The translations under genes and the position numbers were made by a program. The notes below the pieces were generated by a model that was not told the origin of the DNA, did no database searches, and saw only the letters and a list, made by a program, of their open reading frames with translations. A stretch of DNA of 28,060 nucleotides from a virus (lineage: Duplodnaviria; Heunggongvirae; Uroviricota; Caudoviricetes). The stretch's first letter is position 1, and each line of letters begins with the position of its first letter. The DNA lies in IMG/VR virus record IMGVR_UViG_2728369593_000002. One strand, 5' to 3'. Below are positions 7-7,318 of the stretch, one piece after another.

Positions 7-294
7 ATGGGCGACTGGCGATTCTTTATTAGTGAGCCGGGAATTATTTCAGTTGAGGATTCACCACCTGGCTGGGGATTACTTCACGTTGTTAACGGAA
101 GAGTACGGAAAGTACATGGATGGCCCAGGGGTAATTGCTGTTGGGGTAATCCTGACGATAAGCCATTTACTGGAATTAAGCAGGTTGAATGCGATTACAT
201 GTCATCTGCATTAAGGCGCATGGAGTTGAGAGGGCACCTTAATGAAATATATGACGGTGTAATTGTTAATAAGAAAGAAGGAAACGCGGCATGA
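7..294 (+). CDS. hypothetical nin-region phage protein; frame is open to base 1, so the true start may lie upstream of the window
   Basis: 95-codon ORF whose stop overlaps the next start as ATGA (291-294), a translational coupling typical of lambdoid nin genes. No family recognised. Confidence 0.35.
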   Translation: MGDWRFFISEPGIISVEDSPPGWGLLHVVNGRVRKVHGWPRGNCCWGNPDDKPFTGIKQVECDYMSSALRRMELRGHLNEIYDGVIVNKKEGNAA

Positions 295-944
295 TCGCTA
301 TTACCAAAGAGCGACTGCTGACAATCAAGCAGTGGCGCGAAACATACGGACCTGGCAGCAACGTTGTACTGCCAGCAGAAGAAGCGGAAGAACTGGCACG
401 AATTGCTCTGGTATCGCTGGAAGCAAAACCAATAGGTGCATTTCACATTGCAGAACAGCAAGTTGACGGCACAAGTGACTACATCAAGGATGGGGAGTGG
501 CCTATTGATAATGGGACAATTGAAGTATACGCCGCCCCTCCAGCGCCGGATGTGCCAGCTGTTCTGGAACGTTTGCAATCCATTGTAGCGGCCCCACGCA
601 CATTACCTCGCAGAAAAGAATGGGTTAGCGGGCAGCAGTACAGTTACGTACTTCTCGAAAACGTAGAAGCTATGGTTGATGAAGCCTGCCGCGCCGCCAT
701 GCGTAAGGCTGGCAACTCTCCGGTAACTCCGGATGGTTGGATAAGCTGTAGTGAGCGAATGCCGGATACCAAAACAGCCGTTCTTGTTGCCGTGGAGTTT
801 GACAGGAAAGGTGACTGGCGAATGAAATGGGCGACTTACATCCCTGGGCATCCTGACGCTAATGATGGGTGGATAATTCCTGGTGCGTCGTGGAAACCAT
901 CACACTGGATGCCTCTACCAGAACCGCCGCAAGAGGTGAGTTAA
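291..944 (+). CDS. DUF551-like phage protein
   Basis: 217 aa; C-terminal W/P-rich region (WISCSERMPDTKTAVLVAVEFD...KPSHWMPLPEPP) resembles the DUF551 domain of lambdoid prophages. Family assignment is from memory. Confidence 0.65.
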   Translation: MIAITKERLLTIKQWRETYGPGSNVVLPAEEAEELARIALVSLEAKPIGAFHIAEQQVDGTSDYIKDGEWPIDNGTIEVYAAPPAPDVPAVLERLQSIVAAPRTLPRRKEWVSGQQYSYVLLENVEAMVDEACRAAMRKAGNSPVTPDGWISCSERMPDTKTAVLVAVEFDRKGDWRMKWATYIPGHPDANDGWIIPGASWKPSHWMPLPEPPQEVS

Positions 945-1027
945 TGAGTTGGCCTGAAGCATTCGCAACGGTAGGAATTGCAATGGCGGTGGCGCTGGTA
1001 GTGTATTCGGTTTGCCGCTGGGGGTAG
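944..1027 (+). CDS. 27-aa hydrophobic peptide (MSWPEAFATVGIAMAVALVVYSVCRWG), putative small membrane protein
   Basis: ATG overlaps the DUF551 stop as TAATG; GAGGTG Shine-Dalgarno 5 nt upstream; single predicted transmembrane helix. Too short for the ORF track. Confidence 0.35.
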   Translation: MSWPEAFATVGIAMAVALVVYSVCRWG

Positions 1028-1186
1028 GGTATTAGAAAAACGCCCCGCCTCATAGGTTGGGCGTCTGAGAGGCGGAGGCGGGAGTTATTACATAGTGACA
1101 CAACAATACCTGATTTTGTATTGAAGCAGGGAAGATGTGACTACATATTGAGTTATGTGCGCGTACGTCAAACACGGGAGGTTATC

Positions 1187-1276
1187 GTGCTGGTTCTGAA
1201 AGGGGCGCTGGCTATTGTATCTGTGATGGCAATTTATTGCTTTGTTGTTGTTCTTATTGATCGCTTTTCTGATTGA
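1187..1276 (+). CDS. 29-aa hydrophobic peptide (VLVLKGALAIVSVMAIYCFVVVLIDRFSD), GTG start
   Basis: Strong GGGAGG Shine-Dalgarno (1176-1181) 5 nt upstream of GTG at 1187; single hydrophobic helix. Confidence 0.3.
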   Translation: MLVLKGALAIVSVMAIYCFVVVLIDRFSD

Positions 1277-1399
1277 TTTCGTGTTGGCGAGTTGGCGGGA
1301 GTTAAGTAGAATTGCTGCGGGTGCTTGAGGCTATCTGCCTCAGGCATGAACACCAAAGGCAGATAGAGAAAAGCCCCAGTTAACATTACGCGTCCTGCA

Positions 1400-2560
1400 A
1401 GACGCTTAACATTAATCTGAGGCCCAATCTATGTCTCACAAATGTAGGTTAGCCTCTTACGTGCCGAAAGGCAAGGAGATGTATGGGTCCACCACATATT
1501 GCAATTTTTATTCTCTTTTAAAATATATTCCACGGGCGTCATTAGTGCGAGCGCCTTGTGGGGTCTTTTGCTGTTATACAGCACCAGATATTCCGCCAGC
1601 TTCTGGTTAAATAGCGCCAGATCTTCAAAGAGTAAAATCTCATTAAATTCAATAAACTGCTCTCTTAACGTCCGGTTAAAACGTTCACAGATAGCGTTCA
1701 TTTTTGGCGTGTAGGGATAGGTCCAGAGGTGTTTGATAGCGGCTTCCTGCAGCGTTTTGTCGAAGTTTCCCAGGAACTCTTTTCCGTTATCTGTGATTAT
1801 CTGGCTGATACCGACCGGGAACAACCGGGCTGCGCGGCTGAAGAAGTGATTGACGATATCACTGTTGAGTGACGGCACAGCCAGCGCCAGCGCGTAATTG
1901 CTGCATTCGTCGATCATGGTGATGACATAGCGACGCAGTTCGCCCATTCTGAGCTCAATGGCGTCCATCCCAATGAGCTCACCTGTCTTTGCCGGGCGGT
2001 AGTGCTTTGGCCTGCGGGGTTTGGCAGACCGCTTTTTGACAAGCAGTGCCTTCCCCCGCGATCCCAGACGCACAGGTATCATCCGCATTTTATCATGTGC
2101 GGCAGCGATCATTCTGCCGATGGTGGAAACACTCGGACAGGCCAGATAGCGCTGTTCGCACCAGGGCTTCAGGCGAACAAAAATCTGCTCTTTACCGAGG
2201 TTCGGCAGCTCTGTCCTGAGGCGTCGAATCTCTTTCAGCACATCGGGATGCCAGTGTTTTTTTCGTCGCACCAGAGGTGCCTTACTGTGCGGGATTAGCC
2301 CCTCAGGTCCTTCCTTGTTCAGTAACTGACGCCACCAGTAAAGCGTGCGGCAGGACACGCCAAAGGCTTCAGAAGCTGCAGAAATACCGTGTTTATCCCA
2401 GAAGTGCAGAGCCTTCATTCTCATTGTTGCTATATCAGCCATCACTGAAAGCCTCAACGCATAATCGGCCGTTTGGTAGTACTTAGGATAGCCAACCATC
2501 AGATGCTGCATTTGCATAGTGCAATCTCCACTTACTTATCCGGAGGCAATTGCAATATCT
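1400..2560 (-). mobile_element. IS481-family-like insertion sequence (boundaries approximate; terminal inverted repeats not identified)
   Basis: Lone minus-strand transposase gene inside an otherwise + strand phage operon. Approx. 1.1 kb unit consistent with the IS481 family. Confidence 0.45.
1429..2517 (-). CDS. DDE transposase, IS481-family-like (N-terminal HTH plus rve integrase core)
   Basis: 362 aa with IITDNGKEF and YNSKRPHKAL motifs typical of rve-core transposases. GGAG Shine-Dalgarno upstream of the ATG on the minus strand. True start could be an internal Met (MADIATM...). Confidence 0.8.
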   Translation of the reverse strand: MQMQHLMVGYPKYYQTADYALRLSVMADIATMRMKALHFWDKHGISAASEAFGVSCRTLYWWRQLLNKEGPEGLIPHSKAPLVRRKKHWHPDVLKEIRRLRTELPNLGKEQIFVRLKPWCEQRYLACPSVSTIGRMIAAAHDKMRMIPVRLGSRGKALLVKKRSAKPRRPKHYRPAKTGELIGMDAIELRMGELRRYVITMIDECSNYALALAVPSLNSDIVNHFFSRAARLFPVGISQIITDNGKEFLGNFDKTLQEAAIKHLWTYPYTPKMNAICERFNRTLREQFIEFNEILLFEDLALFNQKLAEYLVLYNSKRPHKALALMTPVEYILKENKNCNMWWTHTSPCLSARKRLTYICET

Positions 2561-2588
2561 CTGTGAACTTACACAGGAGAAGCAGGCT

Positions 2589-4744: not shown

Positions 4745-4770
4745 CTCAATCTGTTATCCGGGGCTATATT
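4741..4770 (+). promoter_or_regulatory. pR'-like late promoter: -35 TTGACT (4741-4746), 18-bp spacer, -10 TATATT (4765-4770)
   Basis: Sigma-70 consensus-like hexamers abutting the Q stop codon, the position of pR'/qut in lambdoid phages. Confidence 0.5.
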
Positions 4771-4831
4771 CCTCACGCGTCAGCAAAATCTGGCGTCGGG
4801 ATTGGCGTCCTGGATAGAGACCGCGACAGAT

Positions 4832-4857
4832 ACACGCCGCGAGCGTGTTTTTTATTG
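4832..4857 (+). terminator. tR'-like intrinsic terminator about 60 nt downstream of the pR'-like promoter
   Basis: ACACGC-CGCGA-GCGTGT hairpin followed by TTTTTTATT. Confidence 0.5.
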
Positions 4858-5014
4858 TCGTATGCACGCGCACATCTGAATTATGGTGGGCTGTGTGGGG
4901 GCGGAGAGATCCGCGCCGGTCGGTTTCCCGGTTACGCCAACCCTGCACAGTTCACCACCAGATGATTGGCGTCGTCGGTGGTGAGTTATTAAGAAACCAC
5001 CAGAGGGCGTCATT

Positions 5015-5527
5015 ATGACAACTCAAATTTCTGTTGAAACTCTCTCCCCGATCACCCATAACCAGATTCCTGTTATTACCACCGAACTTTTGGCGCAGCT
5101 TTACGGCACTGAGCCGGTGCGCATTCGCCAGAATCATCATGAGAACAAAGTACGCTTCGTTGAAGGGAAACACTTTTTCAAAGTTGTTGGTAATGACCTT
5201 AAAGAATTGCGGGTAGCTTTAAACTACTCACAAAATTTGCGGGTTACTTTAAGTAACTCACAAAATTTGCAACCATCTTTAAGAGGGTTACAAATTTCCC
5301 CGAAAGCCCGCTCCCTCATCCTCTGGACAGAACGCGGAGCAGCCCGTCATGCCAAAATGCTCGAAACCGATCAGGCGTGGGATGTGTTCGAAAAAGCTGG
5401 AAGACTGCTATTTCAGACAAAAAGGATCCGTCAGCGCCAGCTTCATGCCAGAAAAAGTTTACGACACGCGAGTTCTCTGTTATCAGCGAGGCGGTGTCAC
5501 TGTTTCCACAATTCAGTTGCGGGATGA
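5015..5527 (+). CDS. ORF6N/KilA-N-like DNA-binding domain protein (antirepressor-like moron); the C-terminus probably continues in ORF 5349..5630 after a frame break
   Basis: N-terminal region (ITTELLAQLYGTEPVRIRQNHHENKVRFVEGKHFFKV ... LILWTERGAARHAKMLE) resembles the ORF6N domain. The last 35 residues of this frame are Arg-rich and look out of frame. Confidence 0.55.
   Translation: MTTQISVETLSPITHNQIPVITTELLAQLYGTEPVRIRQNHHENKVRFVEGKHFFKVVGNDLKELRVALNYSQNLRVTLSNSQNLQPSLRGLQISPKARSLILWTERGAARHAKMLETDQAWDVFEKAGRLLFQTKRIRQRQLHARKSLRHASSLLSARRCHCFHNSVAG
5205..5294 (+). repeat. three tandem, progressively degenerate copies of a 30-bp unit inside the ORF6N gene
   Basis: aattgcgggtagctttaaactactcacaaa / atttgcgggttactttaagtaactcacaaa / atttgcaaccatctttaagagggttacaaa; encodes LRVALNYSQN-LRVTLSNSQN-LQPSLRGLQI. 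Confidence 0.55.
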
Positions 5528-6102: not shown

Positions 6103-6462
6103 ATGTGCGAGGTGAGAGATGATGAAATGCCTCATAACCCAAATACCTGGCCGGACTGGCTGGAGTTGTTTCAGAGCTGGTGGCGTGGAGACACTCCGCT
6201 GGGCGCAGTGATTATGTCGATCGTTATGGCTGGTTTGCGCATCGCCTATTTTGGCGGTGGTGGGGGCTGGAAACGAAAAACGCTTGAGATTTTGCTCTGT
6301 GGTGCCCTGACGCTGACCTTTGCATCCGCGCTTGAGTATGTCGGATGGCCTAAATCACTTTCTGTTGCCATTGGTGGTGGGGTGGGGCTGATTGGTGTTG
6401 ATGCTATTCGTGGTGCGGCAATGAGGGTCATCGGTAACAAGTTCGGTGCCCATAAGGAGTAA
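6103..6462 (+). CDS. class I holin, lambda S-like; possible dual start (Met at 6103 and Met at 6127)
   Basis: Three predicted transmembrane segments, Gly-rich loops and a charged C-terminal tail; GAGGTGA Shine-Dalgarno precedes the second Met at 6127. Lies immediately upstream of the endolysin. Confidence 0.8.
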   Translation: MCEVRDDEMPHNPNTWPDWLELFQSWWRGDTPLGAVIMSIVMAGLRIAYFGGGGGWKRKTLEILLCGALTLTFASALEYVGWPKSLSVAIGGGVGLIGVDAIRGAAMRVIGNKFGAHKE

Positions 6463-6465
6463 TTA

Positions 6466-6942
6466 ATGCAGACACTTAATTCCCAGCGTAAAGCTTTCCT
6501 TGATATGGTGGCATGGTCAGAAGGAACAGATAACGGACGGCAGAAAACCAGAAATCACGGTTATGATGTTATTGTCGGTGGCGAACTGTTCACTGATTAC
6601 TCCGATCACCCCCGCAAACTTGTCACGCTAAATCCGAAACTCAAATCAACAGCCGCCGGACGTTACCAGCTTCTTTCACGCTGGTGGGATGCCTACCGCA
6701 AGCAACTTGGTCTGAAAGATTTTTCTCCAGAAAGCCAGGATGCTGTAGCGCTGCAGCAGATTAAAGAGCGTGGCGCTTTACCGATGATTGACCGCGGCGA
6801 TATTCGTCAGGCAATCGACCGTTGCAGCAATATCTGGGCTTCGTTGCCGGGCGCTGGTTACGGTCAGTATGAACATAGAATCGGTGACCTGATTGCCCGA
6901 TTTAAAGAAGCTGGTGGGGGGGTAAATGAAGCTGAGATATAA
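6466..6942 (+). CDS. R: endolysin, lambda R-type lytic transglycosylase
   Basis: 158 aa; NSQRKAFLDMVAWSEGTDNGRQKTRNHGYDVIVGGELFTDYSDHPRKLVTLNPKLKST...RGDIRQAIDRCSNIWASLPGAGYGQ is near-identical to lambda R as recalled. Confidence 0.9.
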   Translation: MQTLNSQRKAFLDMVAWSEGTDNGRQKTRNHGYDVIVGGELFTDYSDHPRKLVTLNPKLKSTAAGRYQLLSRWWDAYRKQLGLKDFSPESQDAVALQQIKERGALPMIDRGDIRQAIDRCSNIWASLPGAGYGQYEHRIGDLIARFKEAGGGVNEAEI

Positions 6943-7318
6943 GCTGGTTATTGTTGCCTTCTTTGTTACCGTCATCGGTTCTTTTATCTGGTCTGCCGGG
7001 CATTACTACAGCAAATATCAGCACGAAAAGGAGCGCGCTGATGAGGCTGTACGAAATGCTGAATCTGCAACAGCCATTACCAGTAACGTCCTGCAATCAC
7101 TGCAAATCATCAATACAGTTATAGAGGCTAACCAGCATGCAAAACAGCAGAGCGCACTGGAGTCACAGAGAACCCAGGAAGATATCAAAGTGGCTGTTGC
7201 GGATGATGATTGCGCTGTTCGTGTTGTTCCTTCTGGCGCAGTTAAGCGGTTGCACGAATACGCGAACGGTATACGTGTCGGTGCCGGTCATTCCGTTACC
7301 AGCAAGTCTGACGGCTGA
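6926..7318 (+). CDS. Rz: i-spanin (Rz-like)
   Basis: N-terminal transmembrane helix then a helical periplasmic domain; start overlaps the endolysin stop; contains the overlapping o-spanin frame. Confidence 0.6.
   Translation: MKLRYKLVIVAFFVTVIGSFIWSAGHYYSKYQHEKERADEAVRNAESATAITSNVLQSLQIINTVIEANQHAKQQSALESQRTQEDIKVAVADDDCAVRVVPSGAVKRLHEYANGIRVGAGHSVTSKSDG

Follow-up and report, generated by a model that had tools for sequence, protein, structure and literature searches.

Two small open reading frames upstream of a prophage hok locus

The stretch of DNA analyzed here (IMG/VR record IMGVR_UViG_2728369593_000002; 28,060 nucleotides, in the following the window) is an Escherichia coli lambdoid prophage, whose nearest complete genome is that of strain A25 with 99.8% identity across the region of interest. 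Our attention was directed to two very small open reading frames (ORFs), ORF1 and ORF2, which lie in the order DUF551 gene, ORF1, ORF2, hok promoter and mRNA leader, insertion sequence (IS) of the IS481 family, and hokD (Table 1). An earlier sequence-only reading had assigned these two ORFs their coordinates and their lengths of 27 and 29 amino acids, had credited each with a strong ribosome-binding site and one predicted transmembrane helix, and had held that gene finders miss them. All of these claims were borne out: The coordinates and lengths can be read directly from the sequence, each ORF is preceded by a strong Shine-Dalgarno (SD) motif, and each peptide contains a single hydrophobic stretch, for which the best 17-residue Kyte-Doolittle mean is 2.24 in ORF1 and 2.99 in ORF2. 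At neither position is there an annotation in the RefSeq genomes (annotated by PGAP) that share this DNA, because both genes fall below the length limits of gene callers. The location given by the sequence-only reading, between nin-type genes and an IS/hok region, was correct on its downstream side, where the IS481 element and hokD are found; the upstream genes are early genes of the Ead/Ea22/DUF551 type and not nin genes. When the whole window was scanned on both strands for ORFs of 20 to 40 amino acids with an SD-like motif and a 17-mer Kyte-Doolittle mean of at least 2.2, ORF1 and ORF2 were the only hits, compared with an average of 0.04 hits in 100 first-order Markov randomizations.

Table 1. 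Positions of ORF1, ORF2 and the features around them in the window.
Feature	Position	Strand	Details
DUF551 gene	291-944		Pfam E = 1.6e-21; 5' neighbour of ORF1
ORF1 Shine-Dalgarno motif	933-939	+	GAGGTGA; within the 3' end of the DUF551 gene
ORF1	944-1027	+	ATG 944-946, TAG 1025-1027; 27 aa, MSWPEAFATVGIAMAVALVVYSVCRWG
Terminator-like hairpin with U-run	1036-1080	-	hairpin 1041-1080, U-run 1040-1036; directly 3' of ORF1
Predicted ORF2 sigma-70 promoter	1121-1149	+	-35 TTGAAG 1121-1126, 17-nt spacer, -10 CATATT 1144-1149
ORF2 Shine-Dalgarno motif	1176-1181	+	GGGAGG; 5 nt 5' of GTG
ORF2	1187-1276	+	GTG 1187-1189, TGA 1274-1276; 29 aa, MLVLKGALAIVSVMAIYCFVVVLIDRFSD
hok promoter	1284-1312	+	TTGGCG, 17-nt spacer, TAGAAT; begins 8 nt after the ORF2 stop
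hok mRNA 5' leader (tac stem, mok start, Sok target)	1319-1479	+	Rfam RF01794 'sok', 114 bits; alignment to IS-less relatives
IS481-family element, 1095 bp	1480-2574	-	transposase ORF 1429..2517, minus strand per ORF listing
hokD-type toxin ORF, 51 aa	2589-2744	+	Pfam HOK_GEF E = 1.2e-23; RefSeq hokD in relatives

Conservation, modularity and distribution of ORF1 and ORF2

Loci with either ORF were collected from viral contigs in two pattern scans, with local BLAST as the next step. Homologues of ORF1 were found at 91 loci, and the product comprises 27 amino acids in nearly all of them. In the window, the ATG of ORF1 overlaps the TAA (942-944) of the DUF551 gene, which is an arrangement typical of translational coupling. 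Such an overlap of the ATG with a stop codon (ATGA, TAATG or TGATG) is present at 90 of the 91 loci, and a GGAGG-type motif is located 8-10 nt 5' of the ATG at almost all of them, across at least three unrelated upstream gene ends. With its start overlapping the preceding stop and its SD inside the preceding gene, ORF1 has the hallmarks of a terminal cistron whose translation is predicted to be coupled. The upstream ORF was extracted for 71 loci and is a member of the mosaic Ead/Ea22/DUF551 group; 5' of ORF1, these genes end in one of three unrelated C-termini (...PLPEPPQEVNQ, ...GLISVEDVLR and ...LKNIEQEVNR). The similarity of related loci begins at the ORF1 ATG and ends at the ORF1 stop codon, and the sequence that follows falls into at least 12 classes, whose contexts include the hok promoter at a distance of 31 nt (phage 933W), a further early gene, terminator hairpins of several kinds, and the ORF2 module. 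That the edges of the module coincide with codon boundaries, and that the start/stop overlap and the SD are conserved, is our main argument for reading ORF1 as coding. Judged by these junctions, ORF1 is a self-contained gene module.

The sequence variation of ORF1 was analyzed across the same loci. The mean ratio of non-synonymous to synonymous differences per site (pN/pS) is 0.38, and the most divergent pair exhibits 11 synonymous and 13 non-synonymous differences (pS 0.58, pN 0.22). The amino-acid replacements are conservative hydrophobic ones; W3, P4, E5, A6, F7, G11, A15, Y21, S22, R25 and W26 are invariant in nine aligned variants, and one length variant results from an in-frame 6-nt deletion. 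The rare database entries that exceed 29 amino acids are mostly stop-loss variants, the others being frameshift or in-frame-duplication variants. A protein-database search with a tandem ORF1 query likewise yielded only 'hypothetical' variants of these kinds and contig-edge fragments mislabelled DUF551. An apparent ORF1-DUF551 fusion, suggested by clustering with 121-aa DUF551 proteins, was an artefact of such fragments: The residues 'GGES' are a mere upstream extension of the ORF1 frame, so that there is no real fusion. Two rare E. coli alleles (P0054 and P0016) have in-frame expansions within the helix, AMAMAMAM and a 15-residue duplication, and are long enough for annotation. One exact ORF1 variant has GenBank entries, in which it is called 'bacteriophage protein' or 'hypothetical protein'.

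ORF1 is widely distributed. By tblastn it was detected in 90 phage records, including 933W, VT2-Sakai, VT1-Sakai, ArgO145 and the virulent Vequintavirinae phage Av-05, and in all four records inspected (933W, ArgO145, VT1-Sakai and Av-05) it occupies an unannotated gap directly 3' of the upstream gene. Of 5426 complete E. coli genomes, 1610 (about 30%) also contain it, with up to 7 copies per genome, and 163 of its places are on plasmids. In phage records and genomes alike, it nearly always lacks an annotation. In phage Av-05 (KM190144; locus L249, 1201-1284), ORF1 has the same ATGA overlap and is situated between two annotated genes. Some of the plasmids that carry ORF1 are about 96 kb in size (records H144 and H145) and may be phage-plasmids.

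For ORF2, the scan identified 35 loci, of which 33 are complete; all of the latter encode 29 amino acids, start with GTG and have an SD. The motif at the SD position is AGGAGG, GGGAGG or AGGAGA at all ORF2 loci, and pN/pS amounts to 0.42. The loci fall into three upstream classes that are unrelated to each other, namely A (the window), B (the majority) and C (HannyBb type). All three keep TTGAA(G/T)-N17-CATATT at equal distance from the GTG, a TACGTC(A/C)A block, and the SD. We read TTGAA(G/T)-N17-CATATT as a predicted sigma-70 promoter of ORF2 itself with a leader of about 30 nt, which would place the transcription start in the window near 1156-1158. Class B loci additionally have about 200 nt of conserved upstream sequence of their own. 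In most ORF2-hok loci, which belong to this class (L056 ~2590-2815, L020, L105, L115, L077, L097 and others), this block opens with a hairpin GTCCGCTTT..AAAGCGGAC, and the flanks 5' of it differ in almost every locus. The E. coli cargo at this side varies, with a SIR2-family gene in one case (L251) and an integrase plus a hypothetical gene in another (L252), and the hairpin looks like the boundary of a cargo or defence hotspot.

Wherever the sequence extends far enough downstream, ORF2 is followed by a hok promoter, a hok leader and a hokD-type ORF. No terminator was found between ORF2 and hok, and a transcript from the ORF2 promoter should therefore continue into hok. This linkage is one-way: In 933W, hokW has the same conserved hok promoter directly after ORF1 and lacks ORF2, and no comparable mini-ORF precedes hokB or hokC of K-12. 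ORF2 is present in 1891 of the 5426 complete E. coli genomes (about 35%) and annotated in none of them. Among 185,579 species representatives scanned, it was found only in Shigella and in three short contigs of metagenome-assembled genomes, which are probably mis-binned: These contigs (L255, L257 and L258; 2.6-3.3 kb), assigned to Collinsella, 'Candidatus Scatousia' and Haemophilus, contain an E. coli-type ORF2-hok segment that is probably prophage DNA. A protein-database search with a 51-aa extended form of ORF2 found nothing.

Conservation of the reading frames in related prophages had been proposed by the sequence-only reading as a check, and it was observed: Frame, length, start and stop are kept at 91 loci for ORF1 and at 33 loci for ORF2. 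The claim that these are real, overlooked mini-genes is further strengthened by pN/pS values of about 0.4, by insertions and deletions that are exclusively in-frame, and by module edges that coincide with the ORF ends. Taken together, these comparisons support the claim well and make it very likely that both ORFs are genes.

Part of the published record bears on ORF2. Table S4 of Fesenko et al., 'The Cryptic Bacterial Microproteome' (PMC11188072), lists the ORF2 copy of BL21 (NC_012971.2, 1591437-1591524, minus strand, sequence VLVLKCTLAIVAVMAIYCLVIVLMDHLSD) in cluster Escherichia_98807, as a member of the predicted-coding Entero67K set with a dN/dS (the corresponding ratio as given there) of 0.46. 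This copy has 13 retapamulin initiation-site reads and 38 footprint reads, with 90% coverage of the ORF (PMC11188072). The window ORF2 shares 72% amino-acid identity with VLVLKCTLAIVAVMAIYCLVIVLMDHLSD and has the same position relative to hokD, and is on this basis a homologue of that cluster. In BL21, a mosaic junction at TACGTCAA swaps the ORF2 promoter for the end of a DUF977 gene, so that the signal from this strain says little about the promoter. The annotated stop of DUF977 in BL21(DE3) falls inside ORF2 (NC_012971.2 ~1591437-1591560; L250 3438-3560), and the same TACGTCAA block is also the homology boundary between class A and class C loci. For ORF1, neither the available part of the Fesenko et al. 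tables (PMC11188072) nor the supplementary material of the Sakai small-gene study contains a counterpart entry, and the peptide strings of both ORFs are absent from the literature full text searched. ORF2 is hence already known as a catalogued predicted microprotein, and ORF1 is known only from scattered hypothetical entries in GenBank.

Membrane peptides, toxins or untranslated DNA

We consider it somewhat probable (roughly 60%) that both ORFs are real coding genes for tiny single-pass inner-membrane peptides, which belong to two separate modules of E. coli and Shigella lambdoid prophages. ORF1 would be the last cistron of the mosaic Ead/Ea22/DUF551 early-gene array. Because its start overlaps the preceding stop and its SD lies inside the preceding gene, transcription of the early operon, either upon prophage induction or in the course of an infection, would always bring about its translation through coupling. 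The conserved WPEAF motif at the N-terminus, along with a face of small residues (G11/A15/S22), suggests that its helix packs with itself or with a partner membrane protein instead of acting by hydrophobicity alone. ORF2 would be the first gene of a hokD/hokW-type module, starting with GTG behind a strong SD and transcribed from a sigma-70 promoter of its own, with a transcript that would run on into the hok leader; given this promoter, it could be made in the lysogen. According to the positive-inside rule, the predicted topology is N-out/C-in for ORF1 (acidic N-terminus, Arg near the C-terminus) and N-in/C-out for ORF2 (Lys5, acidic C-terminus). We expect both peptides to insert into the membrane and to act through helix-helix contacts rather than as regulated toxins. 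For ORF2, a modulator is more likely than a potent toxin because of the strong SD, the lack of a detectable repressor RNA and the ribosome footprints reported for BL21 (PMC11188072). Among the descriptions offered by the sequence-only reading, 'small phage membrane modulators' is the most plausible one for both ORFs; here too, the modulating role is what we infer and not what we observe.

Several points weigh against this assignment. Values of pN/pS around 0.4 on ORFs shorter than 90 nt are only moderate evidence of purifying selection, and they were computed without a phylogeny, the loci having been selected by an exact DNA pattern within each ORF. We found no direct evidence of translation for ORF1. 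The BL21 signal for ORF2 is weak (13 initiation reads) and derives from a different sequence variant in a copy without the ORF2 promoter. The window's ORF2 variant is itself unusual, with 66-76% amino-acid identity to the common forms. Both the ORF2 promoter and the membrane topology of the two peptides are predictions, and no protein family, structure or partner supports a particular function for either ORF.

The sequence-only reading had also likened the peptides to type I toxins, and a conserved antisense promoter had been named as something to look for. In this scenario, one or both ORFs encode small peptides that damage the membrane and that an antisense RNA keeps from being translated, as in the neighbouring hok/sok system. 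The likeness is genuine with regard to the peptides as such: Toxins of this type (Hok/Gef, Ibs, Ldr, TisB, ShoB and Zor) are small (<60 aa), hydrophobic and have a strong SD, as do both ORFs with their single hydrophobic helix; ORF2 moreover has a predicted promoter of its own and adjoins a true type I system, and upstream of it in the window there is a minus-strand hairpin with a U-run. The likeness ends with the regulatory elements, as no antisense or divergent complementary small RNA was found near the ORFs. Across the three locus classes, the sequence within and after ORF2 contains no minus-strand promoter at a conserved position, and a relaxed promoter scan of representatives of these classes revealed only the ORF2 and hok promoters and the known Sok promoter position as conserved, which leaves the proposed antisense promoter without a counterpart. 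That Sok might also act on ORF2 was rejected, since a Sok-like RNA is no more complementary to the ORF2 mRNA than to shuffled ORF2 mRNA, and the same outcome was obtained in every class for a divergent upstream minus-strand RNA. An Rfam search of positions 900-1520 detected the hok leader alone. The leader calculated from the predicted start site of ORF2 (about 30 nt) would be short compared with the long structured one that keeps type I toxin mRNAs untranslated before processing, and ORF1 has none of its own; with its predicted coupling to a larger upstream gene and its many downstream contexts, ORF1 has no room for a dedicated antitoxin. The minus-strand hairpin is stable in the window (-22.5 kcal/mol, z = -4.2) but strong in this lineage only. 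As a conserved terminator it was rejected because it is weak or degenerate in relatives and the alignment contains no compensatory changes; it may be the relic of a bidirectional terminator like those that follow ORF1 in other contexts. 

Neither peptide matches HOK_GEF (Pfam PF01848), whose profile covers a conserved Cys and a periplasmic tail, or any other Pfam family even at E up to 10. When several variants of each peptide were compared with Pfam, NCBIfam, PHROGs and PADLOC, all matches stayed sub-threshold and reflect hydrophobic composition (KdpF, ATP synthase c, and phrog_4612 at E of about 0.02). Footprints on ORF2 in profiling cultures of BL21 (PMC11188072) further speak against a toxin kept silent by an antisense RNA. 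Membership of ORF1 and ORF2 among the type I toxins is thus not supported, and we regard it as quite unlikely. A Pas small RNA in the spacer was dismissed as well, since prophage Pas small RNAs adjoin lysis genes. Nor do the ORFs qualify as a holin or antiholin, which would lie beside an endolysin in the lysis cassette and combine at least one transmembrane helix with a charged C-terminal tail: Both belong to the early region and precede the putative lysis cassette (ORFs at 6103-7318, taken as such from position and size only) by about 5 kb, and no PHROG with a lysis function was matched.

Two further explanations were considered. The conserved segments might be untranslated, with ORF1 as linker DNA for recombination among the modules of mosaic phages, ORF2 as an extended upstream regulatory region of hok, and the frames as incidental. 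Both segments do lie exactly at mosaic junctions, pN/pS is only moderately below 1, and neither peptide is known to have been detected. Incidental frames would nevertheless have had to retain start, stop, SD, length and phase across copies of 80-97% DNA identity, with conservative hydrophobic replacements and in-frame length variants. The same hok promoter exists without ORF2 at 933W hokW, from which it follows that the ORF2 sequence is not required for its presence, and nothing comparable is located upstream of hokB and hokC in K-12. Together with the initiation-site signal and footprint coverage of ORF2 (PMC11188072), these observations render an untranslated origin very unlikely. Alternatively, ORF2 could be an accessory of hok/sok, either as a co-transcribed membrane peptide that modulates the insertion or toxicity of Hok or through transcription that interferes with the hok promoter. 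For this speaks the linkage of ORF2 to hok at 33 of 33 full-length loci examined, the 8 nt between the ORF2 stop and the hok -35 element with no terminator between them, and the restriction to loci of the hokD/hokW type, to the exclusion of K-12 hokB/hokC. Yet this linkage could simply be due to a backbone block shared by Qin-like prophages, Hok is nearly invariant and therefore offers no co-variation to exploit, and HokW/SokW of 933W/Sp5 is a functional toxin-antitoxin system without ORF2 (PMC8621323). We therefore rate a role as hok accessory as unlikely. A broader proposal combines both ORFs: ORF2 would be an overlooked third constituent of hokD/hokW loci in prophages, a protein that adjusts either the activity of Hok at the membrane or the transcription of hok, and ORF1 would be a widespread early membrane effector acting on a host membrane protein during induction. 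We consider this combination rather improbable; if true, both ORFs would be functional in the physiology of prophage induction in about one third of E. coli genomes while being absent from their annotation.

The preferred reading, namely two genes for small inner-membrane peptides, has precedents outside and inside phages. Small single-pass inner-membrane proteins of E. coli, such as AcrZ, CydX and YohP, have been found by ribosome profiling or tagging, and small membrane proteins often regulate transporters, sensors or lysis. Like these proteins and like the Entero67K set (PMC11188072), ORF1 and ORF2 have fewer than 50 amino acids, one hydrophobic helix, no annotation, a conserved frame and moderate purifying selection. 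Unlike AcrZ, CydX and YohP, they are prophage-borne and restricted to Escherichia and Shigella instead of being core genes. Phage 'morons' and small membrane proteins encoded by temperate phages, such as peptides for superinfection exclusion or lysis timing, provide a second point of comparison. With morons, the two ORFs share that they are discrete modules moving between phage backgrounds and, in the case of ORF2, a predicted promoter of its own inside a prophage operon; they differ from superinfection-exclusion and lysis peptides in that neither is part of the putative lysis cassette or located beside an immunity region. Each gene occurs in roughly one of three complete E. coli genomes, and Shiga-toxin phages, for instance 933W and Sp5, are also carriers. 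The hok-linked ORF2 and the array-closing ORF1 are obvious candidates for affecting prophage induction, lysis timing or host physiology. In practical terms the gain is modest: Two gaps in the annotation are filled, and tagging and knockout are given clean targets, with no new mechanism demonstrated.

The interrupted hok/sok locus and the downstream region

The IS481-family element was inserted into the hok locus between the leader and the hok SD, and left ORF1 and ORF2 untouched. It is flanked by a 6-bp direct repeat, AGGAGA, at 1474-1479 and 2575-2580, and in IS-less relatives the base corresponding to window position 1479 is joined to that at 2575. On one side of the element are the hok ORF and the predicted Sok promoter, which was placed by position from the IS-less relatives; on the other are the hok promoter, the mok start and the Sok target. 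As the hok ORF is thereby cut off from its promoter and leader, this toxin-antitoxin copy is, judging from its arrangement, very probably inactive. Among the loci examined, the insertion is present only in the window and in strain A25. K-12 has IS-disrupted hok loci, which the locus in the window resembles. The RF01794 'sok' match (window 1319-1485) has the hok-sense orientation, with its end at the hok ATG; the family describes the hok mRNA leader and not the antisense Sok strand, and strand calls derived from it can therefore mislead.

Downstream of hokD follow a rem homologue, named from the RefSeq annotation of related prophages, as well as DUF1367, YbcO and DUF1133/Q-like genes and RNAs of the isrK and C4 type, and the ORFs farther downstream are, by their order and sizes, putative lysis and virion genes. 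The RNA elements, comprising isrK (73 bits), a C4 antisense RNA (67 bits) and an a1/b1 target element (48 bits), are clustered at 4764-4962, just upstream of an ORF6N-domain gene (5015-5527). This region looks like a P1/P7-type c4-ant immunity or anti-repressor cassette within the lambdoid late-control region.

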